Below are positions 4,401-55,400 of a stretch of 64,000 bases of DNA, in pieces; the first letter of the stretch is position 1; every line of letters begins with the position of its first letter. The position numbers and the translations under genes are program-made. The notes under the pieces were generated by a model that was not told the DNA's origin, made no database searches, and saw only the letters and a list, made by a program, of their open reading frames with translations. The stretch comes from Ophelia neglecta. Lineage: Eukaryota. The stretch lies in NCBI GenBank assembly GCA_965285935.1, contig OZ260662.1, positions 70,742,001 through 70,806,000 of the forward strand, given 5' to 3'.

Positions 4401-7400
4401 AGGTGGTCAGAATCCTTGCATAATGTGTACAGAATTTGATTTGTACCAGCTTGAATGGCAGTGAATGCTAGGTTTTAGTAGTCATAAATACATTAGGGAT
4501 GAATTTTGCCCAATAGTACATGTATGTAGTGTTTAAGCTGTATTCCCTGTGGCACTTAGTGTGGATGGCATTGGCTGTACTCCTCCCTCTCTCTCTCGTA
4601 CATATTCCCACCATTTTGGATGTGTTGTATGGGTGGAACCATAGTTTCATATCGCTAGTCTTATGTTTCCTGGCTCCCTGCTTTTGGCCTGGAAGCTAAA
4701 AAACATTTATAGCAATCTGAGATTTATTACAGGTGCATGCCTCCGGTAGAAATTTTCGCAAGCTTTGGGTTTTTGGGAGGAGGGAACCGACTCCCTTTTT
4801 TCAAATTTTGATAAGGTTTTTGGCAGCTCTGGACCAAATGTGATTTCCTTGCACATATTGTTTCAGTTATCTATCTACAGATGTTGTGGAAATAATTGGA
4901 AGAAAATAAATGGCAACAAAAAAGAAACAAACTCAAAAGTACACAAAAAAACAACAGCCAGAACTCCAGTGCTTTATTACTGGTGCATGTTAAAGATTTC
5001 TTTGACAAGATTTCGTGTCTGCAATGGAACGTTACACCCATGTATTATCAATATGTTGGATTGCTTTACCTAAATTTTCCTTACATCTGTTGGATTGTCT
5101 TGTACCAGTGTATTTTTGCATGAATTGCCATTTTCCAGTCAAATATTAAACTGTGTGAAACCTGTATTCTCAAATAAAAGTAGGAAATTTGAACTATATG
5201 AATAATTCATACTGTACAAAGTGTGGGTGGGTTTGTGGGGGTGGGGGGTTATAAGCATATGGGTGGCCACATTTTTTGTTTCCATGGAAATGGAAAAACT
5301 ATCTAAAAAATCTTAAAATTATCAAATTTGTCTGATTCTGGTGGCGATTTATCTAAGTTACCATTATGTTTGCATGCACAATGAACCTGCAATTATTGAA
5401 AAAATGTCTGCTGAATCCTAAGTTTGTCTTTTAATAATCTAATCCCAGCGGTTTCTTACAGTAATTGACCTCTGAAATATTGCTTCCTTAGTTGCCATGA
5501 CAACAAACCTCTCAAATGTTAGTTTTTTTATAAGGAATGCTCTTGATATTTTGTGACAGCATAAATTGGGGCTTGAAAATGTGGCTCATGAACAGCTCAA
5601 AATGTGGCTCATAATCAGCTCACAGACGGGCTCAGGAACAGCTCAAAATGTTGCTCATGAACAGCTCACAATGGGGCTCAGGAATAGCTCAAAATGTGGC
5701 TTATAATCAGCTCACAGTGGGCCTCAGGAAAAGCTCAAAATGTGGCTCATGATCAGCTCACAGTGGGGCTCAGGACCAGCTCAAAATGTGGCTCATGATC
5801 AGCTGAAAATGTGGCTCATGATCAGCTGAAAATGTGGCTCATGAACAGCTCACAATGGGGCTCAGGAACAGCTCAAAATGTGGCTCACGATCAGCTCAAA
5901 ATTGGGTTATGAATAGCTCAAAATGGGGCCCATGAACAGTTAACTCGGGCTTGTTTTCTCTGGTTGTATGCCAGAAATCTTTACAACCTGTGGATAATTA
6001 TTAAATAACTACCAAATAACATTGAATTTGATTTCTTCCATTCAAAAGGTTGTATTAATGAAAAATTTAATGCCTTCTGTTTAACTACATATAGTAGTAG
6101 GCATTTTTCACTAAGGCTTTCGGATTAAACACTTCATGACTGCCTGAAACAGATCAATTTTAGCTATGAATTCCCAGTTTTTGTGTTCATACTCTGTGTT
6201 ATTCATATATATTGTAAATAATCTGGCCTGGAGAATTACTAGCAAAGCACACATACATCGACATAATATTGTAATTTTGTAGTAAACAAAGAAAAGCCAG
6301 GAAATGCTGAATCATTCCTATTGGTTTTCAGATAATACAATCCGTAGGTGTTTATTTGGTACCGCTGCCCACTCTCCCGATTTGGCACAACATCTGATTG
6401 ATGTACATGTCAAGGTCATGTTGCTCTTGTACAGCACACCTGCACAATCAATATACACCCACACCGCTCAGATGCCACCTAGCAACTATACATGGAGATT
6501 AACTGTGTTTACTGGTGTGCTACTTCAGTCAGCTTCAAGATATAACTAGTTCATAATTTGAGACAAGGCCTATATGATAATATATTTTGTTGAGCTTGTA
6601 TGCTTTGCTGGGGTTACAAGCATGTTAATGTCCTAAGTACATGAAGATGTCTCAATATATTTGACAATACAAGAAAACACCAGCAGGTTGCTGGTTCGCT
6701 TCTGTTAATTGACAAGGGCATATGGGACTCTCAGAAGGATGAAATATCCATGATGACAAGTATAGGTACATGTACATGATATAAGCCTAGGGTAACATCG
6801 TTAATTCAGCAATTACTTGTACACATTGCCTTTCCTCCTTATATATGTACATGTACACATAGGTTAGTTGAGCGAGGAGTCGCTTATGGGCCAAGAAGCC
6901 AGTGGGTCATTTGGTGACTGGGTGTTACTGGCAGTATTAGTTAATTTTACACGGTCTACTATATATTCTTTAACTTGGGACTCAGAGACTTTTGGCAAAT
7001 CATAGTAATGCTTGGAGTTGGCCACGAAATTTTTACTGGAAGTTTAGTTATGCAGCTGGAAATAATGTTTGGCATACAAATTATTCACCCTGTTCTTTGG
7101 AAGCTCCCTTTTTCCAGGTATCCATATGTCTCTTTTGCTCTCCAGAGCTCTGTAAGCACAACCCCTCTTTCGGTTAGATAGACTCAGTTGAAACTTGGAC
7201 CAGCGAAATACAATGATGTATAACTGTATAGATTTTAAATAGCTTTATTAGATGGGTATGAAAGAAGGAAATTTTCTTGATCAATGATTTTTACAGGTTT
7301 TACAGGTTTTTGAACAACCACACTCAACATGAAGACCACGACTTTTCTCATATTGTATAATCATCTGATGTATTAATTCCCTTACAAACATGCCACTATA

Positions 7401-10400
7401 ACACCACTTTTTGATTACCTATAGCGCCAGCTCAAAATATGGCTCATAATCAGCTGACAGTGGGCCTCAGGAAAAGCTCAAAATGTGGCTCATGAACAGC
7501 TCACAATGGGGCTCAGGAACAGCTCAAAATGTGGCCCATGATCAGCTAACAATGGGGCTCAGGACCAGCTCAAAATGTGGCTCATGATCAGCTCACAGTG
7601 GGGCTCAGGACCAGCTCAAAATGTGGCTCATGATCAGCTCACAGTGGGGCTCAGGAACAGCTCAAAATGTGGCTCTTGATCAGCTCACAGATGGGCTCAG
7701 GAACAGCTCAAAATGTGGCTCATGATCAGCTCACAGTGGGGCTCAGGACCAGCTCAAAATGTGGCTCATGATCAGCTCACAGTGGGGCTCAGGACCAGCT
7801 CAAAATGTGGCTTATTATCAGCTCAAAATGTGGCTCATGAACAGCTCACAATGGGCCTCAGGAACAGCTCAAAATGTGGCTCACGATCAGCTCAAAATTG
7901 GGTTATGAATAGCTCAAAATGGGGCCCATGAACAGTTAACTCGGGCTTCTTGCTCTGGATACTGTCCATTGATAGGAACTTGTATGCCAGAAATCTTTAC
8001 AACCTGTGGATAATTATTAAATAACTACTAAATAACATTGAATTTGATTTCTTCCATTCAAAAGGTTGTATTAATGAAAAATTTAATGCCTTCTGTTTAA
8101 CTACATATAGTAGTAGGCATTTTTCACTAAGGCTTTTGGATTAAACACTTCATGACTGCCTGAAACAGATCAATTCTAGCTATGAATTCCCAGTTTTTGT
8201 GTTCACACTCTGTGTTATTCATATATATTGTAAATAATCTGGCCTGGAGAATTACTAGCAAAGCACACATACATCGACATAATATTGTAATTTTGTAGTA
8301 AACAAAGAAAAGCCAGGAAATGCTGAATCATTCCTATTGGTTTTCAGATAATACAATCCGTAGGTGTTTATTTGGTACCGCTGCCCACTCTCCCGATTTG
8401 GCACAACATCTGATTGATGTACATGTCAAGGTCTTGTTGCTCTTGTACAGCACACCTGCACAATCAATATACACCCACACCGCTCAGATGCCACCTAGCA
8501 ACTATACATGGAGATTAACTGTGTTTACTGGTGGGCTACTTCAGTCAGCTTCAAGATATAACTAGTTCATAATTTGAGACAAGGCCTGTCTGATAATATA
8601 TTTTGTTGAGCTTGTATGCTTTGCTGGGGTTACAAGCATGTTAATGTCCTAAGTATTTAGCCTAGGAGGTACATGTAGATGTCTCAATATATTTGACAAT
8701 ACAAGAAAACACCAGCAGGTTGCTGGTTCGCTTCTGTTAATTGACAAGGGCATATGGGACTCTCAGAAGGATGAAATATCCATGATGACAAGTATAGGTA
8801 CATATACATGATATAAGCCTAGGGTAACATCGTTAATTCAGCAATTACTTGTACACATTGCCTTTCCTCCTTATAAATGTACATGTACACATAGGTTAGT
8901 TGAGCGAGGAGTCGCTTATGGGCCAAGAAGCCAGTGGGTCATTTGGTGACGGGGTGTTACTGGCAGTATTAGTTACCGTATTTCCCCTAATTTTCCGACC
9001 GAATTTTTTTACTCTAATTATTCGACCACCCCCTCAAGTCAAAAAACATAATTTCTAAAATGTTCCTAATAATTCGAACGCTTTTTTTCGTCAATTTTCT
9101 TCATTCCTGACTATCATACAGCTATTCATTATCGTCAACAATTTGTCATGAAAGCAAAACCAAAATTGAAGACCTAGTTTCGAACATTTTAGCTCCTTTA
9201 TTATTATGTAAAATACATAAGTCAATCATACTTTTTACAGGTTTTACAGGTTTTTGAACAACCACACTCAACATGAAGACCACGACTTTTCTCATATTGT
9301 ATAATCATCTGATGTATTAATTCCCTTACAAACATGCCACTATAACACCACTTTTTGATTACCTATAGCGCCAGCTCAAAATATGGCTCATAATCAGCTG
9401 ACAGTGGGCCTCAGGAAAAGCTCAAAATGTGGCTCATGAACAGCTCACAATGGGGCTCAGGAACAGCTCAAAATGTGGCCCATGATCAGCTAACAATGGG
9501 GCTCAGGACCAGCTCAAAATGTGGCTCATGATCAGCTCACAGTGGGGCTCAGGACCAGCTCAAAATGTGGCTCATGATCAGCTCACAGTGGGGCTCAGGA
9601 ACAGCTCAAAATGTGGCTCTTGATCAGCTCACAGATGGGCTCAGGAACAGCTCAAAATGTGGCTCATGATCAGCTCACAGTGGGGCTCAGGACCAGCTCA
9701 AAATGTGGCTCATGATCAGCTCACAGTGGGGCTCAGGACCAGCTCAAAATGTGGCTTATTATCAGCTCAAAATGTGGCTCATGAACAGCTCACAATGGGC
9801 CTCAGGAACAGCTCAAAATGTGGCTCACGATCAGCTCAAAATTGGGTTATGAATAGCTCAAAATGGGGCCCATGAACAGTTAACTCGGGCTTCTTGCTCT
9901 GGATACTGTCCATTGATAGGAACTTGTATGCCAGAAATCTTTACAACCTGTGGATAATTATTAAATAACTACTAAATAACATTGAATTTGATTTCTTCCA
10001 TTCAAAAGGTTGTATTAATGAAAAATTTAATGCCTTCTGTTTAACTACATATAGTAGTAGGCATTTTTCACTAAGGCTTTTGGATTAAACACTTCATGAC
10101 TGCCTGAAACAGATCAATTCTAGCTATGAATTCCCAGTTTTTGTGTTCACACTCTGTGTTATTCATATATATTGTAAATAATCTGGCCTGGAGAATTACT
10201 AGCAAAGCACACATACATCGACATAATATTGTAATTTTGTAGTAAACAAAGAAAAGCCAGGAAATGCTGAATCATTCCTATTGGTTTTCAGATAATACAA
10301 TCCGTAGGTGTTTATTTGGTACCGCTGCCCACTCTCCCGATTTGGCACAACATCTGATTGATGTACATGTCAAGGTCTTGTTGCTCTTGTACAGCACACC

Positions 10401-13400
10401 TGCACAATCAATATACACCCACACCGCTCAGATGCCACCTAGCAACTATACATGGAGATTAACTGTGTTTACTGGTGGGCTACTTCAGTCAGCTTCAAGA
10501 TATAACTAGTTCATAATTTGAGACAAGGCCTGTCTGATAATATATTTTGTTGAGCTTGTATGCTTTGCTGGGGTTACAAGCATGTTAATGTCCTAAGTAT
10601 TTAGCCTAGGAGGTACATGTAGATGTCTCAATATATTTGACAATACAAGAAAACACCAGCAGGTTGCTGGTTCGCTTCTGTTAATTGACAAGGGCATATG
10701 GGACTCTCAGAAGGATGAAATATCCATGATGACAAGTATAGGTACATATACATGATATAAGCCTAGGGTAACATCGTTAATTCAGCAATTACTTGTACAC
10801 ATTGCCTTTCCTCCTTATATATGTACATGTACACATAGGTTAGTTGAGCGAGGAGTCGCTTATGGGCCAAGAAGCCAGTGGGTCATTTGGTGACTGGGTG
10901 TTACTGGCAGTATTAGTTACCGTATTTCCCCTAATTTTCCGACCGAATTTTTTTACTCTAATTATTCGACCACCCCCTCAAGTCAAAAAACATAATTTCT
11001 AAAATGTTCCTAATAATTCGAACGCTTTTTTTCGTCAATTTTCTTCATTCCTGACTATCATACAGCTATTCATTATCGTCAACAATTTGTCATGAAAGCA
11101 AAACCAAAATTGAAGACCTAGTTTCGAACATTTTAGCTCCTTTATTATTATGTAAAATACATAAGTCAATCATACTTTTTCGACCAACCCCGATTTTCAA
11201 ATAAATAATTTAGATTATGTACCTAATTATCCGACCAAATTTGATCTTAATTAATTAATTGGTGGTCGGAAAATTAGGGGAAATACGGTAATTTTACACG
11301 GTCTACTATATATTCTTTAACTTGGGACTCAGAGACTTTTGGCAAATCATGGTAATGCTTGGAGTTGGCCACGAAATTTTTACTGGAAGTTTAGTTATGC
11401 AGCTGGAAATAATGTTTGGCATACAAATTATTCACCCTGTTCTTTGGAGGCTCCCTTTTTCCAGGTATCCATATGTCTCTTTTGCTCTCCTAGAGCTCTG
11501 TAAGCACAACCCCTCTCCCGGTTAGATAGACTCAATTAAAACTTGGACCAGCGAAATACAATGATGTATAACTGTATAGATTTTAAATAGCTTTATTAGA
11601 TGGGTATGAGAGAAGGAAATTTTCTTGATCAATGATTTTTACAGGTTTTACAGCCCTTCACATATCGCGTAGTGGGTGGTCTCCACGAAACCCTTGTTCA
11701 CAAGTGCTACATGCTCCTCCCAGACTGTGCGATGGATGGATTTCATTGGAACTTGTCACAGTGAATAAAACAAAACCCATGTGTTAATGTTTGTAAAGTT
11801 TACATGCTAAATATGGGCAAATGTTAATAGCATATTCAACGAAAAAAGGTTTCACAAAAACAAGAACCTCCAGTTGAATCTCAATACACACAATTGCATT
11901 TGATTGGTTCATATTTGATTAGCAGCTTAAGTTTTAAGTTTTTTTATGGTCCTTAGAATGTGGAGCATAAACTCCCCCTTCCCCTCAAGAAAAGATTTAG
12001 TGTGTATATAAATAGACACTGCATTGTCTGTCCATCCGTTATCAAGTGAGTTGAGGGATTCAAAATAAATCATGTAAACATAAAGAAACTAGTTTTCTTC
12101 TAAAAGTTCTCATTAAAATTAGAAATGGAAACAATGGTGACTATAAGCAATCATATAACAACCAATTATTAGTTATTTTGAGACAGTATGGTCAAATCAT
12201 AATCTCTTCATATAAAAATGTATGATTAATTATCCAGTGTTCCCTAGAAATGTAAAGAATGCAAATATAGCCACACATATTTATGTTTATAACTATTCAT
12301 TGGATTGAAATTGTGAACAATTAATGTTCATAAAAAGGGGCCATGAAATTCTACATTTTACTTGTAGTTGCTATTCCAACTTATATGTCCAAATGATCAC
12401 CTGCTTGTTGTTAGTTACTAGTATACATGTGCATTTACATTTACTTCCAATAATTGTCTACATCACCTTTATTAGTGCATTGGTTTTGTACATATAATAT
12501 AGAGAGGCAGTAGATGAAGCCCAAACATACTAGGAATATTAATTAGTTGGTGTAAATTACAGGGTACTAATTGGATGCCATACAATGATAATTATACATG
12601 TGATAATTTCTTTTATATATATACTCATGTGCATTGCATGTAGCACACAGTATATTGTACCTGTCAAATTAACATGGTCCCAAGGCACAGGTTAATTAGT
12701 AGAAAATGATAGGAAAGTCTTCAGCTTGGAGTTAAAGGTTATTACCTTTGTTATGAACAAATAACAGGAGAAACAATAATGTAATTGTGGTGCAGGTGTT
12801 TTGCACGTTAAACGGCATGTGCTAGAATTTGTAACAGAAAGTGCTACATTTGGTCATATCTGAAGCTGACAGTAATTAGAGGAATAATATTGTTCATCAT
12901 TAGTTTTCATTTCCACCTTATGTAGACAAGATTTTCCATCCATTTTTCAGCTGTTTGACCCATGTGTGATATTTGAAATCCTTCAAACATGTAACTGAAA
13001 ATTGGTATGGTTTGCGGAATCATTTCTCCTATTGAAAATCAGGGTTTTCTTTTTTCCAGCAATTTCCAATACTTTGCTCGGTGTGCCACAATAACACTGG
13101 GGTCTCCATGCACTTTAAATGGAGGGCTGTAGAGTCTGGTGTTATCGCTCATATTAATGCATTCACACATATTAACTCTTGAGGTAAAGGCACAATGGAG
13201 CCTGTGGCTTCTATAGGAAGATAGTCTAGATAGAACATATCAATGTGGCACATTGTAATGTAATGTTGAGAGTACAGCAGGTAACCGTGAGTGCTGTAAT
13301 GGTGTCCCTGGATTTAACATTGACTGAGACTTTTCTTTGAATCAGGTCCATGGCATGTCAGTCATTTTTGTACTTTATTAATTGGGGTTGGGTGCTGGGG

Positions 13401-16400
13401 AGAACTGAGGCAAAAGGTACATATGCAAGTAGAGTGCTGGACACCTTTAGGGTAGGTGCCTCCATCAGAGTATGTGATCCCATAGTAAAAAAACACACTG
13501 TATATACCAAGAGCTGAGGCTGTAGGTCCAGACCTGTATTAATATTAATTGGGATTAGTTAAATAATTAAAGACTAATGAAAAATGTATCCACCTGATCT
13601 CCATCCCATGTTGATGCTACTGGCACGCAGTCCAGCTTTGCCTGAGTATACCCAGTGGCCCATAACATATAAAATGGTTCCCCGGGATGTCTACCAATTG
13701 GAAATCACAGAGTGAATATTCTAGTAGGCAAATATTCATGGGTTTGGAAGATTTGTTTTATGCATTATTATTAGTAGAACATTTTGACAACTATACATTT
13801 CCTGTGTACTTGGGGACTGTGAATATTTAGTGACATTGATTGCCTGTATTTTCATTCTGAGCATCTGCATTATTGAAGAAATTATTGGGTGTAAATATGA
13901 ATGCAATGGTCATCATGTGTTGCTGTCAATATAGATATATATATATATACCCAGTGTCAAGCAATATAGGGAAGTCTCACTGGAATGCTGTTTCCTACTT
14001 GTTAATATGCGGATTGCCTTGGTCTTGGTTATTGATTTATCTCATAAAGATTCCAAAGGTCCGAAGTAATAAATGCTCTTATAATTGTAAGGTGGCACAA
14101 TGGCCAGACAGGAAGGTCTGTATTGCAGACTATCAACACATCAATTGATTCAACGTTCCATAAAATTAGTGAGGTTGCTAGCCTCAAAGGAAAAGATGAG
14201 ACCTTTACTTCTATCTACAAAATGGTTCATAGAAACATCTGCATAATCATATAATAGATTATTGCCAATAAACACAACAAGCAAGAAAATATGTGAGAAA
14301 GTCTGAGAATTGTGGACACTATTAATTGTTTGTATACATGAATTCCCCTGATTACCAAAAGTACAAACAATTTCTCTACCATCTCTGGCTTGGGTCCCAA
14401 AACTTTTTATGGCCTCATTGAGTTGGTAATCTGTTATTTCCCAAATGTTCCTTGTGGTATTTGCTTTTTGCATGATACTAAGATCTACCTTGGCATCAGC
14501 ATAAAACCATATCCATGATGATTAAATATTGAAGTAAACACTAAACTGTTAGAGGGAAATTGAAAAATGTTTAGTGTTAGTGCTGAGCTTCAATTGGTTA
14601 GTTTTATAATTTTCAAAAGGCCAACTTTTTATTTTGAGAAATCTAATAAAAATATAAGCATGATAACCCCAGCCAAAAGTCATAATTATCTACATTATTT
14701 TGTAAACCAGAATTCAGAAAAATTGTCATAGAATTGATAATGGGCCCATGGGAAAAAAAACTGATTGTGCGTTATGATCTACATAATAAATTAATTATTT
14801 TAAATAATTAATAATTATCCAAAATACACCAGAATAAATCCAGTTCTTCCTCTCAGTAAGATCTATGGCTGTGTCAAATTTGAAAAAGATGTATCGAATA
14901 TTTTTATGTTATTGCAGAAAATACATTTCCGACTTAATAAAATAATTGTTTTAACTAATTAATAATTATTGGAATTTTGCCAGAATCTAATCAGTAATTT
15001 CTCTCAATAGGGTCTATGGCTGTGCCAAATTTGAAAAAAATGTATAAAATGATTTTGGAGTTATCATGTTAATGACTTAGATCTTGTTCCAAATTTTGCA
15101 TAGTGATTCATGTAATATCTATCAACAATATGTGTCACTTTCTCTGTGATTCACGAAAAGTCAAGTAATCAGTTGACTGGTAACTATTGATAACTGCAAA
15201 TGAAAAGTAGTTAAGGTTCTTTTTGTTTGAAATTGAGTTTATATGGACAGTTTAATCATTTACAATTGCTTATTTAGCTAACTTTATTATTAATGATAGA
15301 AAAATTAGTTTAGCTTTTATTTCTTTATCAATGAGTTATATAGGGCAGTTTGACCATGTAGTGGCCTTTGTCATGTAATTTGCATCATTATACTATTTCA
15401 GTTAGTTAATTTCATTAATGGTGCAAACACTTCCTGTCTTTCATACAAACTAAGAACTACCATATTCATTACTCAGTCTTATAGCATTTTCACCAATCAT
15501 CAATTTCACCCACCTGCTGATATTCCCCTTGCTGCCCCTCCCCCCCCCCCCCCCTGACAGCGTAGGCCTAGTTTCTTCTGTAACCATAGCTGTTTTCTTC
15601 ATATTTGTTGACCTTGATTGTTTTACTGCTAACTATACAGTGGCCATTGTTTTTGCATGTTTGGAATTGTTTGTATGTACATGTATATCAACTTGTTTTA
15701 TGCCTATTTTGTTGACTTTTGTTAACATTGGCTGCAACCAAGTTTAGCTGTAGTTTGGCAGACACAGCCCAGGAGAACAGGTGCATGGTTTATTTGTTAA
15801 GCGAGTAGTCCACCATGCTTTTATGAAATAGGCCAACTATTTACTACAGTTGATACTTAGTTGGCCTCCTGCAGTAAGACACAACTCAAGAAGGCCTTTA
15901 TTGGGAATAACTTAGTCTGTCAGGTTAAATATCATTTCTCAGGAGTCATGACCCAAAATTAGATATTTTACCCTTTCTATTTATGTAAAAGGAATATAAG
16001 GACTGCCCACGCGTGTTGTCATCATCTGCATGTAGAAACAACTTTTAAATAATTATTCATAAAACATAAATGTATTTCATTTTTGTCTGTACAAAGGGGA
16101 TCAGTAATTATTATCATCGTAGCATGCTGGGAATGCTAATCTTATTTATGGTTTTAAGTGGTATTGGGATGGTATATTGCTTTCCCTTATTATTGTTGGC
16201 ACAATAATAATCCCAATGTCATACATTGTATATGACAGTAAATGCTTCTTTACGAATGCTTTCATGTACTCGTCTTTTATTGATGCTTTTATACTGATTA
16301 CCTTTAGCCGAGAGAAAGGGTTTTTCTATGTTCATTTAATGCCAATGTGTATAATATTGGAAAATTGATAGCCATCCAATACTGATGTTGTGTCCCACTG

Positions 16401-28400: not shown

Positions 28401-31400
28401 TGTATGGGGTAAATGATGTTTCCAGCAGTTGTTCAAAATTTCCGTTATTACTAATGCAAATTGCAAAACTTCACTTTAAAGCAGTGCCATGTAAGATGAT
28501 TTTATGTCTTAATGGTAACATTATTATATGTATATGTTGATTTAACCTGCAAGAGACAACACTTTTAGTTATACCATTCTTGGACCTGGCATTTGGCGAG
28601 GTACACTGGCCTAGCAACTTGTTTAGAAAACTTGTATAGAAAAGGCTTTATGTTGCGTTAGACTGTTGTTTGTATATTACACAGCATTCTGTCAAAGCTG
28701 TACATATATGATTTACATATTTATACACTTCATTTGTGCTCACCCAGCCATAATTTTAAAGGTTACTAATTTATTTTGAAGATAAATGTGTGACTTTATG
28801 GTAACACAGTCCAATTATTTGAGTTAACCAAAGTGTGACACAATGTGTTGTGACCCTGCCTTGTTACCTTCAGGATAAATATCATCAATGTGGTGCCAAA
28901 TTCAAAAATGATTAGTGCTACTGTCCTTGTTGTCTTGGCAAGATCGAGCAAAGAATATTTCTGGTCTAATAATTGAAAAAATTGAATACTAAAATACCAT
29001 TGACCCTACTTTACAAGTTTGATGCAAAGTGTGCCATGTTTGACATGCTATAGGGTAGAGATGGGTAATTTTGCTCACTATGTGGATGTTTGACTTGAAG
29101 ACCGTTTAGGATTACTTTATTCCTGTTGAACCAAAATATAACTGTGTTAGACCTGTCCCTATGGTAACTCTCTTCATTATTATCTTCAGAAATATATTCT
29201 AGGTGCATTATTTTATGAGAAATTAATAAATATTTAAAGCCTCAGAAAATGCCTAAGTTTGCTCACTTTTTTCCAATTTTGCTCACCCCCGTTTTCAAGT
29301 TTGCTCACAGAGCAAAATTATGCACATGTTGAGCAAAATAAGACTAATTGGGTTCAAATTTGTTTGGGCAATACAATTAAACTCCTAGTATATGTGATTC
29401 AGAAATAAGACCTGCCTTCAATAATTTAGAATCAAATATATACAATTTATCCTGTGTGACCCAAATTCGTTGAAGGGCTTGCCATGTTTTCATTGTTCTG
29501 CACACACATATTTTCAGCTCACGAGGTGAGCAAATTTAGGCACTTACATTTCACACCATATGGGTGCTGGGCTTCAAAGCTGCTTAGAAGTATTTTATTC
29601 CAGCTGAACCTAAATGAAACTAGGTTAGACCTGTCCCTGATGTCACTCTCTTCACTATGATCCACAGAAATATTTACGAGGTGCATTATTTTATGAAAAA
29701 TTAATAAATCTGTCAGGTCTCTGGAAGTGCCTAAGTTTGCTCAATTCTTCTGATTCGGCTCACCCCTGTTTTCAATTTTGCTCACAAAGCAAAATTATGC
29801 AGTGGTTGAGCAAAATAAGACTACTTAGGTAAAATTTTGGTAATCCATTCAAATTAAACTTATAGTATTTGCACTGTAGAAATAAGACTTACCTCAAATA
29901 ACTTGAAATGTAAGATATAAAATGTATCATGTGTGACAAAATTCATTGAAGAATTAGCCATATTCAAGTCTTCAGCGTACACATATTCCAAACAGAAAAG
30001 GTGAGCAAATTTAGGCATTTCATTTCAAATTATAAGTATGATATTTACATAAAAAAGATATTAGGGCCTAAGTCCTGTTGTAATGAAATAAGTGTTAGGA
30101 TTATTTCAGGAATTTCACTCATGTTATAGATGTACGAACCTATGATTGATTTTAACATTAGTTTCATGTCCCAGTGGGTGGGTTTTATTCTTGCAGTTAA
30201 GAATAGAAATACATTATATTTGGATTCTTTTAACGCTTTGCATAGTTTAGGCCTCCTCGTATCTCCTGTTAGCTTTTGCCTTCGCCCTTTCATCTCCTAA
30301 CTGCCACCATGGCTCGCCTGGGCTTACTGACAGGGGTTATTATATCCGCGAAATGCGGATATTATGGAATCAGTAGCACCGCCGCCGCCGCCGATTTTAG
30401 TCGTTAACGCAATAACTCAAAAGCCATTTCATACATCTTATATGTTAGAAATAGTTAATAATAGTATGTTAGAAACGCATTTTCTGCAATTACACAAAAG
30501 ATATTTAATACATCTTTTTCAAATTTGACGCAGCAATAGACCTTATTGAGAGGAATAAATGGATTCATTCTAGTGAATTTCGGATAAATATTAATTAGGC
30601 AGAACAATTACTTTATTATGTCAAAAACAGATATTCTTTCACATATTCGAAAGTATAGATGATATTGGTTTGAAGTTTTGTGTTATGATTCATGTAATAA
30701 CTATATACAATCTGTGTAATAAGTTTACTAGTTAACTTTATTATTGACCTGAATAAAAATTAGTTTAGGTCGTTTTGCATTATTATTGAGGTCATATGGA
30801 ACCAACTTTATTAATGACTTGCATTGTTATTGAGGTCATATAGAACCAACATCAATCTGGTTAATAAGTTTACTAGTACCGTGTAATAAGTTTAATAGTT
30901 AACTTTATTAATGACCTGAAAAAAAATAGTAAATTAAGGTCGTTTTGCAATATTATTGACGTCATATGGAACCTACTAAAACACGTGTGACAAGTTAACT
31001 AGTTAACTTAATTAATGACCTGAACAAAAATTAGTTAAGGCTGTTATCTTTCCTGCCAACCATAAACTTCTCACTACTCCGCCTTATACCATGTTCACCA
31101 ATCGACTATTGCACGCATTCGCAGATATACCCCTTACTGTCCCCCCCCCCCCCACCCGAAAACTTGGCCTAGTTTCAACGATGTTCTTGACTCGTTCGTT
31201 GTGTGGGCGCATTTTAGGCTCACCTGAAACTATAAAATTTATTATCATAGCCTATGGTACATCATTATAAATGAAAAGTATAACACTGAAAAAAAACTGT
31301 TATACTTCACAACTTTTGCTTTTGAGAGTAAAATCGAAATTCAAGTGCTCACGCCCTGTGAGGACCTATTGTACATTGCTGCATGACAGGAAATTGAGAG

Positions 31401-34400
31401 GGCAGCGAAATAACTTTTTCGCCAAACCGCAAAAATTATGGAACAAATATTAATTGAATTAATTAAAATTAATTGAAATATTTTACACTTGGCCCTCAAA
31501 CTGCACAGTTAATAGTACATAACCCTACCTCTGACTTAGATGTGTGTCGAATTTTGCTCTATATGGGCCTAATTTTGCTTGTGAGCAAAGTTTTTCGCAA
31601 AAACACGCAAATTTGGGCACACCTAGGAGCAGAGCTAAACACACACCCTCCCCATTACTTTTGAAATGTTCTCAATCACTTTCCAACAAACTAGGCATGC
31701 CAAATTGTGCATATGAATAGCTTACAGATTGCTCATTATGCTGCTTTTTACCGCTTTTTGATGCTATATATAGTGGGGGAGCTATAAAGATTCTACACTT
31801 ACTCAAAAAGATTAAATAAATTGGTGAAATTTGCCTGTTTTTCTTGGAGGATTTTGGCAGCGTGTCACACGTGTAAGAATTTTGTCCGATGTAAAAGAAA
31901 CTTGTCCTTTTGCAGTAGTAAGGATGCAGAACTGTTATGCCAACTTGTGAGTCGTTTGGACTAGAAAGACAACAGCTGTAGGGATTCTAAGGTTTTGAGC
32001 AAAATTGGGCACTGAGCAAAATTACCCGTCACTACCCTATGTACATGTACATAGTCCATATACCCAGACAAAAGTATTTATACATTTTTAGATTACATTA
32101 AGTTCATTGTTGTGTATTATGATATTATAAAAGCTAGCTTGGCTGTATCACCACTGGTATAATACAAAATGTTGCTAGTTTCTTCAGTCTAGATTATAGC
32201 TGAGTAAGCAAAGGAGGGCTTACTAAAAATACTCTTGATGGAAATTCATAAAGTATATCATGTGGAGCTGCATTGAAAGCAGGAAAGCTTCTGGAGAACT
32301 CTGCTTTGTTGGGGTTAGCTAACAACACTCAATCCCCATTCAAAGGGCATGTTCTCTCAATAGATTGCTGTGAGGGGCTTCTGAGGCAAGCAAATGCCAT
32401 TTCTCTACTCTTTGAGGATATTGAAAAAGTTATGGCAATTCTTCATCACTTTGAAGATATTTAAAGTATGGCTTATTATTCATGCATAAGCTTGATAAGT
32501 GTCAAATGAAATGCAAAATCCAAGTTAAGTGATAGAAGAAAACATTCTGGTGAAATATCTGTGTATTTCAATGTTCCAGCTTTTAATTAATTTGTAAAAA
32601 ATAAGAAATTGATGTAAAAGAAAGAATTCTTGCATTTTTGCCTTATTTAAAATTTATGCTTTGTTTATATTATATACATTGTACACATAGGAATTTATCT
32701 TGCTCTCTGTTTTCTTATTGGTTGACTTCACCAGAAACCAATTAGTACCAAATAAATATGTTGTCACAGTATTGATTTGCCTTACTGTGAACATTGTCAA
32801 TGTGACTAATAATGCTACATACATCCATGATTATATTGTAGCTAATGATGTGACAGGTAAACTATGCGTAGCACATGCTCTCCTATTCATCTCTAGTGAA
32901 TGGAGTCAGGTTGTTCTAATATGCTGCCTTTGTTTCTGTTTAAAAAGCAGGGGTAGGTTTTAATATAAACCCTACTTGACTGTATTGAATGGCATGAAAG
33001 TTCTCACTGAAATTGTTATTGAAAATCTATGTTTACAGGAGAAAAAATTGTGTAACCTTGACTCCAGTGTGATGTTTCATTGCAGTGAAAGAAAAAAACA
33101 GTTATGTAGGCCATAATATTTAATGTGTTGGTTTACCCAAGCATTTGCAAATTATTTGCAAAAAGGTGTCAGATAAAAAGGAATAAATTTATACGAGGGG
33201 CAAAGGTGAATAACCCTGGTCCAGGAGCTTACCAAATTGCCAGTGAAGCACTTTTAAAACTCAACAAAAGAAATTAAAGAGTCAAGTATAGATTTTCAAA
33301 TCTTTTTGCTATGGAGATGAAAAATAAAAAGGGCAGTTTTCAAATTTATATTTTATTCTAATTTCTAATAAAACAGACCATTGCATTCTTGTAAACCAAT
33401 CAACTAAAACTGATGGTTTTACAGAGATGTGTTTTTGTTTGATTTAATTTTGTTTTAAAATACTAGATCATAAATGTTGTCCCGTGGAGTCAGGCTGGTA
33501 ATAGTTGATAGGGGTGTGTGCCTGCAGGCTCCAGGCAGGACACAAGGACTCTCCAGGGGGGTGGACCTATTTGTAAACCATTAACCTGCCTCTTCAAGGC
33601 AAGGTATTTTTCTTCAAAAAACTGGCTGAATACATTTATATGAAGTGTTTGATAACCCCACTTACCAGCAAGGCATGGGCATGGTAATGATAACTGGTTT
33701 ATAAAACAAGTATATAATATATTAAAGTATGATCATTTTTCATTGCAAGCTGAATAGTCATGATGATGATGTTGATGATGATGTGATGATGGTGATGATG
33801 ATGTGGCTTTATAAAGACAAATAAAGACTTTGTATTGATGGAATAGAGTCTGATGTAATCTGATTATGATTGTGATTACAGTACCATGATTATTAAAAGG
33901 CAGAACCCTCATTAATGAGCATTGCCAGCATGCGTCTTAAGTCCTGTTCTGACAGCAGTAGCTAAGACGCATTAATGTGGGACATGATACAGTACAGGTA
34001 CTCATTGAGCTGAAGGCATGTGGATATTTAGTCGGGTGTAGGCGTGCTGTCAAGACTAACGAAATTACCTGCAATATAAGCAGCCTTATTTTAGACTGAC
34101 ACCAGCAAATGAGGTCAGTAAAGACAGGTTTGGACTGGCTTATATTTGGCCAGTGTTTGCCTACGTGATGTATCCGTCTTTCTCAAATATTATATATACA
34201 TAGGCATGCATAATTTGTTTTGCTAGAGATTTTAAAACCTTGCTGCCTAATCGGCAGCAAGCAGAAAATGTAAAGGTGGGCATCAAAGCTAGTCTAGCAA
34301 GGTAGCAAAAACTAAATGATCAGGAGCTGAAGGCAGATATTGTCAGAGGTGAAGTGCCAATACATAAGCATTTACTGATTAATAAGTGGAAAAACCTAAT

Positions 34401-43400: not shown

Positions 43401-46400
43401 CTAGTTTCTGATGAACAGTGGTATAAATTAGTGCTTAACAGGATTATACAATAGTTAAATACAAATAACTCCTTTTCTATAATAAAGCAGAAGTATTGTG
43501 TTCCCTCTTTAGTATTAAATTTATATTGCAACTGATAATGCAAGTTAATTGTACTTTGATGCTTTTCTTTTCAGATCGCTTATTTGGGAATTGCCAGAAA
43601 GCTAATGATGTGAAAGATTTCTACCAATATCGCCTAAACCATGACCAGCTTAAGAGGTTGGAGGGTGAGATCACCCGTCTGCTGGGGGAAGGCTTTACCT
43701 GGGACAACCTCTATACCCAGTGTACCTTAGGAAACATGCTGCTAGCCTTCCGTTCAGGTTACCAACCTGACCCCAACTTCTGTGACAACAGAAGCATAGC
43801 CAAAGAGCAGCAGATTAGCAAGGAGCTGGTGGATGACACCCTAAAGCTCCTAGAAAAATACTTTGTTGATTACTATGATGACCTCATTGTTCCCAAAATT
43901 CCCCAGCAAGGGTTGTTGCTTGATGAAAACTCCGTGCCTGTTGATGGCAGTTATCCACCGCAGTCTTCAGAGTTGGACTCATACAGGGACAGCTCTGATT
44001 TTTCTGGACCTTTTGAAAAGAAGGACGAGTTTGTCAATGTACACAAATACCTGAAAAGTCATAAGAGGGACCCCTTTGACTCGGGAAGCCTTGAAGAGCT
44101 CGATGATCAAGGAGATTATTTGTATGATTATGATTTTGGCTCCAAGCTTGATAATCTAACACCACAAGCAATTGATCTTTTAAAGTCATTTCTGGGTAAA
44201 AATCCTGACTACCCAGTCTCTGATGATGATAAATCTGACAAAGGAAATGAGGATTTCAGTGAGGATATTCCTCTTACCATGGATAATAACCAGAGTGTTG
44301 ACCAAGAGATGGCACCACAATTTGCTGCCAAGAGCTGGGAAGGGTCAGACAGCCCAGACATCCCTGTTCCAAGTGGTATGTATATGTATATGACTCAATG
44401 TTTACATGTGCGCTGATATTTTATTATCCTTCCCTTTTGGTGTATATATAAACTGCTGCATATTGTCTCATATCAGTCTCAATATATTTTAAATATATAA
44501 TTTAATTGCTAAGGCTTAAAAAGGCACTTTAGCCCCCCTGTGAGAAATTTTGTGATGCGAGTGGCCAGTATTTATTTTATTTTCATATCCTTTTCATCAA
44601 TCACTGCTAAGATTTACAGTTGGTCTGAGAGACTAACTGTAGCTATAAAAAAAACAGAAATAGCTGAACACATTTTCCTATGTAGGCTCTGACAGTCACA
44701 GTATCTACATGTATGGTGTTAAACCACTGATACCCAGATGTAAAAAATTCTCATAAATCTATGCTGAAATGCTCATCATGTATAAATTATGATGGAGTAA
44801 GATAAGCTATCTCTCTGGTGTCTCCATTACATATTGGGTGTTTTTTCCTCGTCAAATTTCTGCGGGCTGACAGTCGAAAAAATAAGGTCATAGTTGACCA
44901 GGTCATAGTTCACCAGGAATGCTTAGTAGACAATTTACTACCGCTTGAAAAAACTAGTTTTAAATCTACTGATGGACACAATGTTTTGGATGAAATAATC
45001 TATCTTTAATCGACTTTAGCCTCTGCGATGCAGCGATTATGCTGGCGCAGCTTGTATTTTTTAACTATTTGTATGCCGAACATTGTTTGCTTAATATATT
45101 CATATGTGAGCAGGTCAGGGCAGGTCATGGTTGGTGTAACACGCAGCCGGCATACATACATCTGACATGTAGTGTACAATACATACCATGCCCTATTGGC
45201 TCCATTACATAATTTGACCGAAAGTCTTTTACTTGCCCAATTTATGACCAGATGTGGTTTTAATGCATTTGAAAAGTTATAATCAAGCAGTTAATATTAC
45301 AAAAGTAGCTATTATGTTAAATAATGTATGATCCCTCCTACCCTAGTTTAGTTTGTGGTAAACAGGCAAAATGGCAGAAGCTTGGAAATGGGGTGGGGAT
45401 CTAGATAGTCAGCATTTGCTTGTTTATTAACAGTTATGATACTTTCAGCGACCTCAAAGACGAGGGCTTTGTAAATAAATTAATGGGGTATCCATGGGTG
45501 GTAAAGGCTAGATAATATACCTGCTACTAATAACTTTATAATCATATCCATATAGCTTTTACTTTACTAATATCATGGTGGCACTGTTGCAATATGGTTG
45601 TTATAGAAGAAAGGACTTGTTTAAGTCACTTCATATATTTTAAAATGCGCATGCGTCGTTCGACCTATTAAGGTTAGTCCCAACATCCCCTCAGTTACTC
45701 TAGTGAAACAGTAGTTTTGTGACAAGAAACTAAAATGCTAACCATTGACTATGCCCTTGACTTTAGTGAGAGATTTCACAGGGGCTTTGCCAAAGCACCT
45801 ATGTGTCTCATTAATTTTTCAGTAATAATGCAGTTCATACTTTAATAGCTTGAGAATGACAATAAAAAGAGCATTGCTTCATTCAAGTCCCTAAAGTCTG
45901 GTATTGATTTTGACTGGACAGTGACCAATATGCCACATAGAGGGATGTTTGCTTGTGTATGGAGTTTCTCTATACTATCGTCACCAGCATAGAGTGAAGA
46001 TTCCTTGTGTGAACATTGATGGATAAAATGACATTTTGAGTTGCTAATAATCATCATGAAATATCATCCAATAAGTAGATTTGTATATGAAACTGGTAAT
46101 TAAAATTGGAAATTTTGTCAGACAATCTTCCTGCACACTTCTATTTGAACAAAGAATACTGACATGCACCTCAAGGGGCGCACATCCTGGGGAGAACCTA
46201 AAGTGTCTTTTTTAAAGCCTACACTTATCAATAGATATATTTGGTTTCATTTGAAATAAAATATGTTCACAAACAATGACAAAGAAATACATACCCACAT
46301 TTGAGAAGTTAGTTCTTTATTATATTGAATAACATATTTTATGCATAAACTGAAGCCCATCATAATCATCTCAACTTGTAACAAAATAATAACCTTGTAA

Positions 46401-49400: not shown

Positions 49401-52400
49401 GATGTCATTTATGACAGGCAGTATTGTTACTCAATTTTTAGGCAATATTAGAGCATCAGAATTGCCTGACAAGGAAATTGAGAGGCTTACTGCATATGTA
49501 GACTCCATGCTGAGAACTATTAGTAGAATGGACAGCCGAGAATTGGATGAAATTGAGCAATACCTGGAATCTGAACAAGGTGATCACCATTTTAAAAACT
49601 AGGGAACATCTAAGTTAGGTTTTTTGTCTCTTAATATTTTTTACATCTTTCTGATTTCCTTCTAAAGCAATACTTTTGTAATCTGAATGCAAGACAATTG
49701 TGTAATGAGTTTTAATCATGAAACTTGTATCTTCTGTTAAGCAGATGTGAAGCTGCCAGAATTACACAAAGCTGTAAAAAAAGAACAAATGTCTTTCGAG
49801 TCCCTGAAAACTCCTGGCAGTGATTCCAAAATCAGTGTTGACATTGCTCCCCAGGAATATGGTACGTTATACTTTGTTTTGGGTGATAATAATTACTTGA
49901 GTGTATTGAAAGAGTTGGACATGTGTAACTGTTGTATACTTTTTCAAGTACAAGTATATCACATTTTACCATATATTTTTGCAGGACCACATTTTATTTC
50001 CCACTTAATTGTTGGTAGCTGTCCAAATATTCTTGTGTCGGTAGTCAACACACTTATTAAAATTCCCTCCTTTTTACCACTTTTGGACATCTAAATGTCT
50101 GATATGAGTTCTGAAAATTTCCACATGGTCAGTATTGACTGCACCCTATGTCCTCTGATTTAAAAAAAAAAATTCCCCCCTTTCTGCCTTTGGTGTAATT
50201 TTTGGCCAATTTACCTAGTCTTTGTTTTCTGATGAACCTTTGAGAATGACATTAAATGAAATCACTTGTACTGTGATGCCAGTAAAGGAAGAAAATGGTG
50301 GGAAAATTGTGAGAATAGCCATAATATATGAAATAAGCCTTCTGCAATGCATAAGTATAGGTCTACTTGGTAGGCTTGATTTGGTGTTGCTGGCTTGCTT
50401 GGTTTGTGCCATTTTCTGCAGCTATTCAAGTTTAGAAATGCACTGATTTTTTCATTTTTTGGCTGCTTTCCTGCATGACAGTGTGCCCACAGCTGCTGGT
50501 ATAATATACCTACAGGCCCCATTGACCCTGTGATATATATATATATATAAGCAGCATGTGGTTAGTACTTTGATCAATCAAACTAATCAATTTTTGTTTG
50601 TACAGGCATTTTTCCAGCCAAAATTATAGCTTTATCATGGCCGCTGTAGTAGATATAGGCTTATAGGTAAATTAAGTATCTGAAACTGTAAATGATTAGG
50701 CTGTATTGAACAGTATGGTTAAGATAAAAATAAAAACATGCTTGCAAAATCAAGGCAAACATAGAATTATTACGAATCAGCTGCCCTTGCCTGTGGTGGT
50801 TCTAGGTAACCAACTTTAATTATTTCACCTAACCCCTTCATAAGGTAAATTGGCTAAAATTTACACCAAGGGCAAATGGGAAAAGTTGTGATTTAAAATG
50901 TCAGTAATTAAAATTTGGTGACATATGAGGGTGTGATCAATTATGATCATGTTCAAATTTTCTGAAGTTGTATAAGCTATTTAGAAGTCCTCAAAAAGAA
51001 AAGGGAGGGGACCTTGGCAAGCGTTCTAACTAGTATTAACGAACAACAAACAGGAAAATTGATTTTTCAAAATTAACACAAATATATAATGTTGTACTCT
51101 CCTCGGTGCTGTGATGCTGAAATGTTGTACTCGGAAAAAAAAGGTTTGCAAACTTAATATGCAGTGCTTAACAACAATCCTTGACACAATATTAACCAAA
51201 TTTGATGCTTGGACTTTCAAATTCGGTTAAGTCCAGTCTCAACATTTCAATGTTATTATTGAAAATATGCTATGGGGTGAAGTTACCCTGTGAAGTGATG
51301 GGTATTAAGAATGCGGTACAGCTGTCCTTGGCATCTTTCTGTACCCATAATATATATAAAAGGATTGCTGAAAATCATAGAACGCTCTTACTTCAACTTA
51401 CTCATGTAGACAATTGAATTTATTGTCAGGAGATCCCTGCTCCCTTTAGGCCACTATTGATTTAATTACTGTACAAGGATTTTCAGACTGAAGTGACACA
51501 ATTAGTGTGAGAAAGGTGATAAATCCTAAACAAAGCAGACTGCCTATTCTAGCTCTCTCAAGTCTAGCCTGTACAAATTTACATCTTTAATGAAAGAATG
51601 CCTGCAAGAGAGAACTGCACACTGCCTTTTTTGTATATACAGATGGATTAGGAAAATATTTGTACTGACATTTCGTTTGTATATTGACCCTTGTATCAGG
51701 AAGGGGTCCCATGTATTTCTGTGCACTGAGGCTGCAATCTGACATTGTTAGCCTCAAAGATATTTAATAAATGTGTTTTTTTTTTCTGGAACACTGTCAC
51801 AAATATTTTGTACACTGTTACAACTGATAGCAGGGAATTTAGAAATTGACTTTTATAACATGTATTATACATTTATTTTTGGGTCCTATTTTCTGATTTA
51901 TATTTCTCCTACCTCTCAGTTGACCGTCTGAAAGATCCACATGACCACCATTTTGATGATGATATGAAACCAATTCCAACATCGAGGCCCAAGTATGACA
52001 GCGTCGCAGCTAATTACGCCTATCTGACTGTCAAACCTAAGTATGTCTGTCTTTATTATAAAGTCACCATACATGTAATGATATTGGAAAATGGTAATTT
52101 TTTGCAAGCAAATCTATCACAGTATAGTAGGGAAGGAGTCCTGAAATTTAAACCTGATGTATGGGCAAAATGTTTTATTGGTATCAATATTTCACATGTC
52201 TATCTTTTCCATTTTAGTACCGATGATCAAGAAGATGCTGTTTTGATTGTTGACACACTGGAAAGTCTTTTAGGGCTGCCTCTTGGGACTTTCTCTGATG
52301 TCAGGTAAACAGAAATTTCCAGTCTGTGAAACTTAAAATTTGTGTACATGCTAATTATGATTAAGGTTCACTTGTGACACCTGGTAATTTTTTAAGATAG

Positions 52401-55400
52401 GTTTAAAAAAAGAATTTTAGTGAATGTAGAATGTTTTAATATTGGGGCTGATAATATATCCTCTGTGCCACAGTCCAAAACTTGTATTTATATTTTACAT
52501 AATGAACAGTGGCCATTGATTTCCTAGCTGTTATATTTTGACAATTAAAATTAACTCACCTAATTTATTTTTTAAACATCTTCATTAAATTTCCAAAACA
52601 ATTAGTGCACAAAATGTATCTTTTAATTACATTACAAGGACAACTAGAGAGAATAAGTTCCAATATACTACAATACAGTATGATGTATGTATAGCATTGA
52701 AAATTTACATGTGATAACCTGTGATAACATTTGAAGGATGCAGGACAGTTCCCTAGCTAGAGACATCTCTCTTAATTCACCCAACCTGCAATACAATTCG
52801 CCATCTGGTGGGCATCGCAGAACTACAATCGCGCAATGCATTGCGGGAAAAAAGTTGACCAAAACAGTAGGCGTACCCAAGCTGTCATAAACATTGCATG
52901 GCGTCTTACATGGTCTGCTGAGATCGTCGCGGTATAACGTTATTTTGAGGTTACAAACGAATGAAAGGAAGATGGTGTTTATCTGCGAGGCAGCAGAGTG
53001 CTTCTCCCATAGCAGAAAAATTAACCATCTGGACAAGTATCCTTGGATGGCAGAAATATCTTGGGTTAAATGGGCCCGAGACGACCCAGCAGCCGTGGCA
53101 AGATGGCGGCGCCTGGTACGAAGAGAAGGCAAATCGTCGAAGGAAAACAGCATGATCGTGGACAAATTAAATATAAACAAAAGATCTAGACTGTGTTCAA
53201 GGCACTTTGACCCAGAACAATTGAACACTTATCGAGGAGTCGCCATCTGAGATCCCAAATACTTCGCGTGGAATAACTGGGGACAGCCTGTCAGGCCACG
53301 AGCGGTGTCAGCCCTGAGAAAGCTACACGCCTCCCGAATGTTGACAGATGTCAAACTGCGCGGCAGACTGCAAAAGTAACTCGCGAAAAGTGGTCGACAA
53401 GGAAGTCCAAAAACCATAATTCTGCGATGCCCACCAGATGGCGAATGGTATTGCAGGTTGGGTCAATTGGTCCAGGTGTTTGAGGACAGATCCCCAGGTC
53501 TAGGTGTTTAGGACAGTTCCCCGGTCTAGGTGTTTAGGACAGTTCCCGGGTCTAGATATTTAGGACAATTCCCCAGTCTAGGTTTTAAGGACAGCTCCCT
53601 GGGTCTAGTTGTTTAGGACAGTTCTCTGGGTCTAGGTGTTTAGGACAGCTCTCTAGGTTTAGGTGTTTAGGACAGCTCCCTGGGTCTAGGTGCTTAGGAC
53701 AGCTCCCTGGGTCTAGGTGTTTAGGACAGCTCCATGGGTCTAGGTGTTTAGGACAGCTTCCCGGGTCTAGGTGTTTAGGACAGTTCTCTGGGTCTAGGTG
53801 TTTAGGACAGTTCTCTGGGTCTAGGTGTTTAGGACAGATCCCCGGGTCTAGGTGTTTAGGACAGCTCCCTGGGTCTAGCTGTGTATGGCTATTTCTAAGC
53901 CTGCAATGGTTTATCCATATGGTTTCACAAGTCCTTTATTATTCCCAGCTCGGGTCATGGCTGGAAATGCCCTGTACAGAACACCATGATTCTACATGCC
54001 CAGGCCATGTTCGAATGTGCAACCACTGTGATGTACCGAATGACCCTTTTATGACTTGAGCAAATTGGAGCTGTCAAACACGTGCAGTCCTAAACAATTG
54101 TGTCCTGTCTTAATACCCAACTACACCAGCAGTCCAATAACAAAAAAACAAACATTGACATAGTTACAGCTCAACAACAATCAGTATAGTAAAGGCACAT
54201 CAACATCAAGTGATAATCTCCCTGCATGAAAAAGAACTGGTCATTTCCAAATGAACACCAAACATACACTGTACATGTATTAGAGGGAAGGCTGCCAATC
54301 TTCAGTCTCCAAGCAGTAGATTACATATGTGATCATCGGCTGTTAATCCAAAATATAAGAAATCAGAGCATGGGCTTTATACAGTATAAACAGTCGAAAA
54401 TCTACCCAGCATGCAGAAGAGAGGGCACATAAAGGCTTTATCAGCAAAGTACAGCGGGAACCCAGCCCGAGGTAAGAAGAGAACGTCCTATCCAACCACC
54501 AGTGACCTGCACATAATCAAGGGGGGGGGGGGGGGGAAGCATAGTGTCAGCATGGGTTCTATAGACAAGGCTTGTTACCAGCAAATTGCCATTAATGCTA
54601 ACAGACTTGCAGAATTGTTACAATGACAGCTTGCTAGAAGATTTGGCAATTTTGGATTTCTCCAAAGGATGCAACGTGGGGTCGCCCTGGAATCTTGCTG
54701 AGAAACCAAGTCATTATAAAATAGCATGGAGTCCTGGCTGGATGGGTAGAAGGATTTTTGGCACAACAGGCCAGAAAGTTATAGTGGATGTCCTATCTTC
54801 TTCTACTGTCCCATTACCCTCAGGAGTGCCACAAGGCACCTGCCTTGGTCCGGGTCCCATACACTTTCTTTGTTACATTTATGAAATTGAGGACATGAAA
54901 CTCATTATTTGCAGTTAATATACTCTTAATAGCTAGTTCGAAACAAAAAAGATCACCAAATTTTACAAGAAGACTTATGAACATTAATTTCTATTCCATA
55001 GAAAGATTTATTATGTGAGATTCCTGGGGAAATAAAATGCTACACTTCTACTAAAGTCTAAAAACATGCATCCAGGATGATCAGTAGGAATAAGAACGAA
55101 ACTGAAATTGTGATTGGCATGATTAGGGGACTGGGGTGGGAGCTATTGGAGGAAAGAAGGAAACAAACAGACTGTTTCTTATGTACCAAATTTTAAATTG
55201 ACTTATTCAGATTCAAGTCCAGGAAGATCTTAAGCAGGGATGGAGAGAGTGCTACATTCATATCAAAGCAAATTTCCACCCCTGTCAACATTGATTTTAC
55301 TCAAAAACAATAAGAATTGAAATAATGTTCCCACAGAGGCTATATCTGCTGATTTACTAAAGGCTTTAATAAAAGGCTTGCAACAAAACAGTTCTGGTGT

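Follow-up and report, generated by a model that had tools for sequence, protein, structure and literature searches.

The 64-kb window, by which we mean the whole stretch of DNA analysed, carries a host gene of the IA-2/PTPRN family of receptor phosphatases, which spans positions 1-2000 and 25053-58992 and has a CpG-rich 5' region and a CpG-depleted body. Exons of this gene were matched at 1334, 25053, 43574, 48122, 49771, 51949, 52219 and 58873. Downstream of the exon at 52219-52305 (plus strand; tblastn of P0095, which contains PF00102 and PF11548) lies a short element bounded by inverted repeats. The next matched exon starts at 58873, so that the element is intronic, on the same strand as the host gene. 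The inverted repeat comprises 52 nt (52774-52825 and 53417-53468, 94% complementary), and its outermost four bases on each side read AATT (52774-52777 and 53465-53468), the putative target sequence or target-site duplication; the target reported for ISL2EU transposons is A|AT|T (PMC4482050). If AT was duplicated within A|AT|T, the element extends from 52777 to 53465 (plus strand, 689 bp); if the duplication is the 4-bp AATT, it extends from 52778 to 53464 (687 bp). The left terminal inverted repeat (TIR; 52777-52825, plus) pairs with the right TIR (53417-53465, minus), with three mismatches over the 52 nt. A minisatellite with a 27-bp unit adjoins the right end (53469-53882, plus; 15.4 copies by TRF, repeat family D3), and a unit-like piece is found to the left of the element at 52739-52756. 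The element has a GC content of 0.485 and a CpG observed/expected ratio of 0.92 in a CpG-depleted gene body; tiles of equal size (n=89) have a median ratio of 0.23, with two of them above the element.

No second copy of the element is present in the 64-kb window, and none of 37 pattern matches in bacterial and archaeal genomes was confirmed as a copy. An Rfam search for structured RNA returned nothing beyond chance, and the element's left end folds no better than its shuffles (z -0.48). A sigma-70 promoter scan was set aside as being of no relevance in a eukaryote. Elsewhere in the window, the region 5574-11653 holds a 1.9-kb tandem duplication (7288-9236 and 9232-11180, 99.9% identical) together with 23/46-bp arrays, possibly an assembly artefact or a recent duplication. 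A further CpG-rich intronic repeat (30229-31600, observed/expected 1.09), with an inverted partial copy at 14781-15064, is probably another young element.

Inside the element, an ATG at 52972 opens a THAP-domain frame (52972-53379, plus; Pfam THAP, E 3.6e-5), which we take for the 5' remnant of a transposase gene and which is interrupted by a TGA at 53248-53250 and ends with a TAA at 53377-53379. The TIRs, the AATT junctions and the Pfam THAP match bear out the description of this locus, in an initial annotation, as the remnant of a mobile element with a THAP frame; all sequence strings named in that annotation were likewise recovered in place. A profile-free library search gave 91 matches, from which three non-THAP repeat proteins (P0053, P0063 and P0064) were left out of the homologue counts. 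Five longer relatives share 52-61% identity with the frame, and four relatives could be named: Ptychodera flava, Acanthaster planci and two Lytechinus species. P0004, P0028 and P0046 show the architecture THAP+HTH_Tnp_4+DDE_Tnp_4, P0003 and P0018 that of THAP+HTH_Tnp_4. P0005 and P0006, both from Lytechinus, contain no transposase domain; here a THAP of this subfamily is joined to a C-terminal part that is not a transposase, possibly a domesticated gene in two sea urchins. In a tree built on 50 of 94 rows, the bootstrap of which had not converged, the window protein falls into a clade (99/97) with P0003, P0004, P0018, P0028, P0005 and P0006.

Could the encoded THAP domain still be functional? 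The C2CH ligands are present. Alanine occupies a position where 22 of 23 relatives have proline, and a stop codon directly precedes the DPKYF box, so that the copy offers no single open frame with the conserved P/W/F residues and the C-terminal box. The THAP domain of the window copy is therefore probably dead, as judged from its reading frame. The HCF-1-binding motif is [DE]HxY (PMC13631171). A matching DHDY lies between THAP and HTH in five of eight long relatives (P0003, P0004, P0028, P0043 and P0046) and is absent from the window copy. Autoregulation by this copy, which had been raised as a possibility, can be dismissed because the THAP frame is interrupted, the proline is replaced by alanine and the HCF-1 motif is missing. 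Among structural-database matches, THAP2 (1.8e-7) ranks better than THAP11 (2.7e-5).

To which group of DNA transposons did the parent belong? ISL2EU elements are defined by a THAP-HTH-DDE transposase and the target A|AT|T (PMC4482050, PMC4122938); in Table S2, at least ten ISL2EU rows carry THAP, among 18 of the 25 rows listed. With ISL2EU (PHIS, PIF/Harbinger-like; PMC4482050, PMC4122938, PMC9179366) the element shares an N-terminal THAP, which probably belongs to a THAP-HTH_Tnp_4-DDE_Tnp_4 lineage, a putative AATT target at both ends and an animal host. Its TIR of 48-49 bp inside the target sequence lies within the 6-259 bp described for ISL2EU. In contrast, ISL2EU elements average about 4.8 kb, whereas this one measures 0.69 kb, and their TIRs usually begin with GG, whereas the ends here read TCACCC/TGACCC or CACCC/GACCC. 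Nor is there room for the second ISL2EU ORF, a YqaJ exonuclease, as would be expected of a deletion derivative: the THAP homology stops near 53337, about 80 bp short of the right TIR, and no HTH, DDE or YqaJ frame remains in the element. We infer from this endpoint that the HTH, the DDE and any YqaJ frame were deleted. The AATT at both junctions is compatible with an AT duplication in A|AT|T and with a 4-bp AATT duplication alike. Because the latter also fits, and because the ends do not begin with GG, we call the element ISL2EU-like rather than a member of ISL2EU. The catalytic pattern of PHIS transposases, D(19-29)K(29)D(18-40)D(11-19)P(18-28)R(3)E, is matched in one of three full-length relatives (P0028) and is absent from the window. 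THAP similarity alone would not prove the type of the parent, since the clade includes P0005 and P0006, which have no transposase domain. Kolobok transposons generate a TTAA duplication on both sides; this assignment was rejected, as TTAA occurs at the left junction only. Spy was rejected on its target sequence.

The initial annotation drew attention to motifs for host factors along the element. We scored these against dinucleotide shuffles (n=5000) of the element without its right TIR; scores for CTCF (JASPAR) and YY1 refer to working versions of the matrices, and those for Staf to a working version of the consensus. The motifs proved unequal. The strongest is a predicted Staf/ZNF143 site of the SBS1 type, consensus TCCC-R-NN-ATGCA-YY-GCG, on the minus strand at 52832-52850. 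It scores 22.5 of 23.2 bits against the working Staf consensus, the best match in 64 kb (per-position p 2.4e-8; 0/5000 shuffles; 0/97 tiles), and is the sole match to the working SBS1 consensus in the window, again with 0/5000 shuffles. The annotated ZNF143-type site thus stands well above background. The Staf core TCCCRNNATGCA alone arises in 16/5000 shuffles. Identity to the single probe published in PMC3627581 is 13/18, a marginal value reached by 249/5000 shuffles. PMC3439442 gives a consensus that lacks one base relative to the probe, and this string has no exact match at the site. The site overlaps a perfect 14-bp palindrome (52832-52845; minus strand, TTCCCGCAATGCATTGCG), which is not rare by itself: palindromes of at least 14 bp occur in 152/5000 mononucleotide shuffles, and the window holds 19 matches. 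In part, the palindrome would be inherent in the Staf consensus. A second, weaker match to the Staf consensus (14.3 bits, per-position p 8e-6) lies in the outer left TIR at 52777-52795 (plus).

The SBS1 site lies about 120-140 bp upstream of the ATG at 52972. A promoter role of the left end is plausible, and the site is likely to have been an activator site of the parent's transposase promoter. Is it conserved? The upstream read-throughs of relatives allow this question to be approached at the protein level. The closest relative, P0002, reads SAMHHGK about 50 codons before the THAP methionine; its counterpart in the window, RAMHCGK, precedes the methionine by about 46 codons. The P0002 peptide fits a same-strand site with p 0.003 when unconstrained and 0.0007 with strand and distance fixed, a score matched by 1 of 444 window ORF controls. 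Overall, 3 of 19 extensions reach p<=0.05, as compared with 2 of 59 controls. Among the extensions long enough, 1 of 9 is compatible with the site; P0004 and P0013, which rank next in closeness, do not show it, and splicing may affect the gene models. P0017 (p 0.016) carries its match on the opposite strand at 16 codons, and P0093, about 83 codons upstream, passes a shorter core model only (p 0.0025). We regard the P0002 peptide as a hint of a conserved SBS1. The papers searched offered no confirmation that ZNF143 is active in this host group. A literature search, outside of which lay subscription journals, Repbase and bioRxiv supplements, recovered no report on promoter motifs of ISL2EU, ZNF143-type sites included. 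The supplements of PMC4482050 (three files) and PMC9587614 (four files, one of them partial) gave 0 motif matches and yielded no ISL2EU DNA consensus, so that motif sharing is not addressed there; PMC12676858 mentions neither CTCF nor ZNF143 nor YY1.

Next to the Staf site, at the inner end of the left TIR, lies a module that matches RRACTAYR without mismatch (52820-52827, plus). Its ACTACA (52822-52827) ends 145 bp before the ATG. The initial annotation had read ACTACA and palindrome as a composite of the THAP11 type, but the geometry argues against this. ACTACA faces the degenerate plus-strand half of the palindrome, which has TCGC for TCCC, across a spacer of 1 nt instead of 2 nt, and the good, minus-strand half has no ACTACA. 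Thus ACTACA-NN-TCCC in one orientation (SBS2/TBS/M4) is not present, and the upstream core RRACTAYR is. The M4 score is at background (2614/5000 shuffles). The SBS2 matrix score is equalled in 132/5000 shuffles, and its best match is the SBS1 site, which has no ACTACA. For an ACTACA to lie 1-3 nt from either half, p is ~0.002. The base changed here is the second C of TCCC, mutation of which reduced ZFP143 binding (PMC3439442). The upstream core is the part needed for THAP11/HCF-1 (PMC5006282); at odds with this, ACTACAA by itself was reported as unbound (PMC3627581), and according to a review, recruitment of THAP11/HCF-1 depends on spacing and direction (PMC7154149). ACTACA and half-site might possibly represent a decayed or variant SBS2. 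The corresponding place in the right TIR reads ATTATG, a variant. The inner TIR ends (52820-52828 and 53414-53422) read GAACTACA on the left and GAATTATG on the right, and the CA versus TG at matching place would fit decay of an ancestral CpG on opposite strands. The right subterminal region (53379-53406) contains TCGCGA and GGAAGT, which by eye resemble what we take to be the BANP/CGCG and ETS promoter words. This region may be what is left of a promoter for a second ORF pointing inwards.

The CTCF-like word is carried by the TIRs themselves: CCACCAGATGGCG occurs on the minus strand at 52799-52811 and on the plus strand at 53431-53443, as annotated. The matrix matches extend over 52796-52814 (minus) and 53428-53446 (plus), the latter a symmetry copy identical in sequence and score. 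Each scores 14.7 of 26.5 bits against the working matrix (per-position p 4.5e-6), a value equalled by 32/5000 shuffles and exceeded in 1 of 97 native tiles. The regular expression of the initial annotation was matched by 2/5000 shuffles. A better CTCF match in the window lies in a host exon at 44299. The site thus passes an ordinary PWM threshold, though as one independent site, because the inverted repeat copies the sequence. That the two copies point outwards, which had suggested a boundary-like divergent pair, is uninformative: in a pair of TIRs, the two copies of a motif can only converge or diverge. In addition, echinoderm boundaries are enriched for CTCF motifs, the orientation of which follows no pattern (PMC13317027); three of the four named relatives are echinoderms. 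In the upstream read-throughs of relatives, 0 of 19 passed the CTCF peptide-compatibility test at p<=0.05 (2 of 59 C-terminal controls), and few of these extensions reach the distance of the TIR, which makes the test a weak one. Host CTCF may bind the TIR word.

A perfect YY1 consensus, CAAGATGGCGGC, lies at 53099-53110 (plus), on THAP codons A43-R47. With the working matrix it is equalled in 1/5000 shuffles. The codons involved, GCA AGA TGG CGG CGC, specify A-R-W-R-R around the invariant tryptophan. Among 20,000 synonymous recodings of this peptide, an exact YY1 site arises in 0.5% and a site of at least 12.5 bits in 11-16%, so that coding constraint explains the match incompletely. Most relatives cannot encode a strong site. 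Of the 67 of 90 relatives aligned there, 38 have lysine after the tryptophan and one has arginine, and a site of at least 15 bits can be encoded in five of 67 only. Conservation of the YY1 site, chosen beforehand as a refuting test, is not found as far as proteins can show. As a component of a regulatory cassette the YY1 match therefore falls away, and it is probably incidental.

What, then, does this element represent? We consider it likely that it is a dead ISL2EU-like derivative, non-autonomous and internally deleted, which retains the ZNF143-type transposase promoter of its parent. The parent would have been a cut-and-paste transposon with the transposase layout THAP-HTH-DDE (ISL2EU; PHIS/Harbinger-like) and probably borrowed a ubiquitous host activator of the ZNF143 type for its transposase promoter. 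An internal deletion would have produced the window copy, which is inserted at AATT within an IA-2/PTPRN-family intron. What survives in this copy are the two TIRs, the promoter region on the left, the beginning of the transposase gene with its THAP codons and some 80 bp on the right. Any movement of the copy would have to occur in trans and depend on the transposase of an intact one. The CTCF-like word, part of the TIR, would have been retained mainly since the transposase must recognise the ends; the YY1 match would be a codon coincidence, and ACTACA does not form a canonical SBS2.

Could the element instead deliver a working promoter, an insulating divergent CTCF pair and YY1, and have been shaped or kept for that purpose? 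Each of three motifs of the housekeeping class ranks first or second among the matches in 64 kb, the element stands out by its CpG content in the depleted gene body (higher in 2 of 89 tiles), bound CTCF sites are known in zebrafish non-autonomous DNA transposons (PMC7182764), and echinoderm boundaries are enriched in CTCF motifs. We nevertheless consider a functional cassette unlikely: the CTCF pair amounts to one site with modest PWM support (32/5000) and a better counterpart in the host exon at 44299, TIR symmetry dictates its orientation, which is without pattern in echinoderms, ZNF143 has no general looping role (PMC11687419), the YY1 match is coding and cannot be encoded in most relatives, and a recent insertion explains the CpG richness equally well. 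The idea that all matches are accidents of a GC- and CpG-rich 0.7 kb, compared by eye with many known motifs, draws on the following: CTCF (0.6% of shuffles) and YY1 (~0.5% given the peptide) would be lost if corrected for some 100 motif families, M4 does not exceed background, and such a palindrome turns up in 3% of shuffles and the probe identity in 5%. Chance is improbable as an explanation for the whole, given the SBS1 site (per-position p 2.4e-8, 0/5000), its location where a promoter is expected, the compatible site in the closest homologue, with matching orientation and comparable distance, and the ACTACA 1-3 nt from either half (p ~0.002).

A further explanation invokes sites of the transposase itself. 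AGATGGCG, common to the CTCF- and YY1-like words, would be a repeated end-recognition motif, and the likeness to host-factor sites incidental. It occurs four times in the element (in both TIRs, at 53101 and at 53241) and not once in the rest of the window; a TIR 8-mer recurs twice internally in 40/5000 shuffles, a post hoc test, and the TIR has a GGCA core like that of THAP1 (PMC13631171). Both internal copies, however, lie in coding sequence, one of them over the stop codon, and form no subterminal array, and we hold this explanation to be quite improbable. We give a very low probability to the most far-reaching proposal, that a marine-invertebrate lineage of THAP transposases might combine, in its promoter, a conserved ZNF143 site with an adjacent ACTAYR module bound by its own THAP domain, while DHDY would recruit HCF-1. 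Leaving room for such a circuit are the ACTACA one base off SBS2 spacing, the hint from P0002 and the DHDY in 5 of 8 relatives; that THAP11 is not the best structural-database match counts against it. If true, mammalian THAP11/HCF-1/ZNF143 promoter logic would parallel or descend from transposon self-regulation, and if the family's THAP binds ACTAYR and recruits HCF-1, the origin of the THAP11/M4 logic would become directly testable. As it stands, the dead ISL2EU-like derivative is one further transposon with host-factor motifs, a known phenomenon, the modest value of which is the hint of a conserved ZNF143-type promoter site in an ISL2EU-like lineage.

The initial annotation had proposed an undescribed system, yet each ingredient has a published precedent: the literature documents CTCF sites in DNA transposons of the non-autonomous kind as well as retroelement-borne sites for ZNF143. 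Zebrafish non-autonomous DNA transposons, Harbinger and Kolobok families included, are enriched for bound CTCF sites (PMC7182764). Like the element described here, TDR13B, HATN11_DR, Harbinger-N11/N13_DR and Kolobok-1N1_DR are short and bear a CTCF motif; in our case, the host is an invertebrate and the motif is predicted and located inside the TIR. The available supplements of that study contain no ISL2EU/IS4EU entry. MLT1J retroelements carry SBS2 to which ZNF143 and THAP11 bind, and it has already been proposed that SBS2 sites originated from transposons (PMC3627581). The present element is likewise transposable and carries a strong, predicted SBS1; unlike MLT1J, it is a DNA transposon in which ACTACA adjoins the degenerate half across a 1-nt spacer and which has no SBS2/TBS/M4. 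THAP11 itself is reported to descend from a DNA transposon (PMC5695914), and ZNF143 is no looping factor (PMC11687419). Finally, RAG-2 is transcribed from a bidirectional, ZFP143-activated promoter shared with NWC (PMC3439442), so that here, too, ZNF143-type sites serve a transposase-derived gene. NWC/RAG-2 is a host-gene promoter with two inverted SBS2 40-50 bp apart, whereas the putative promoter described here lies inside the element.
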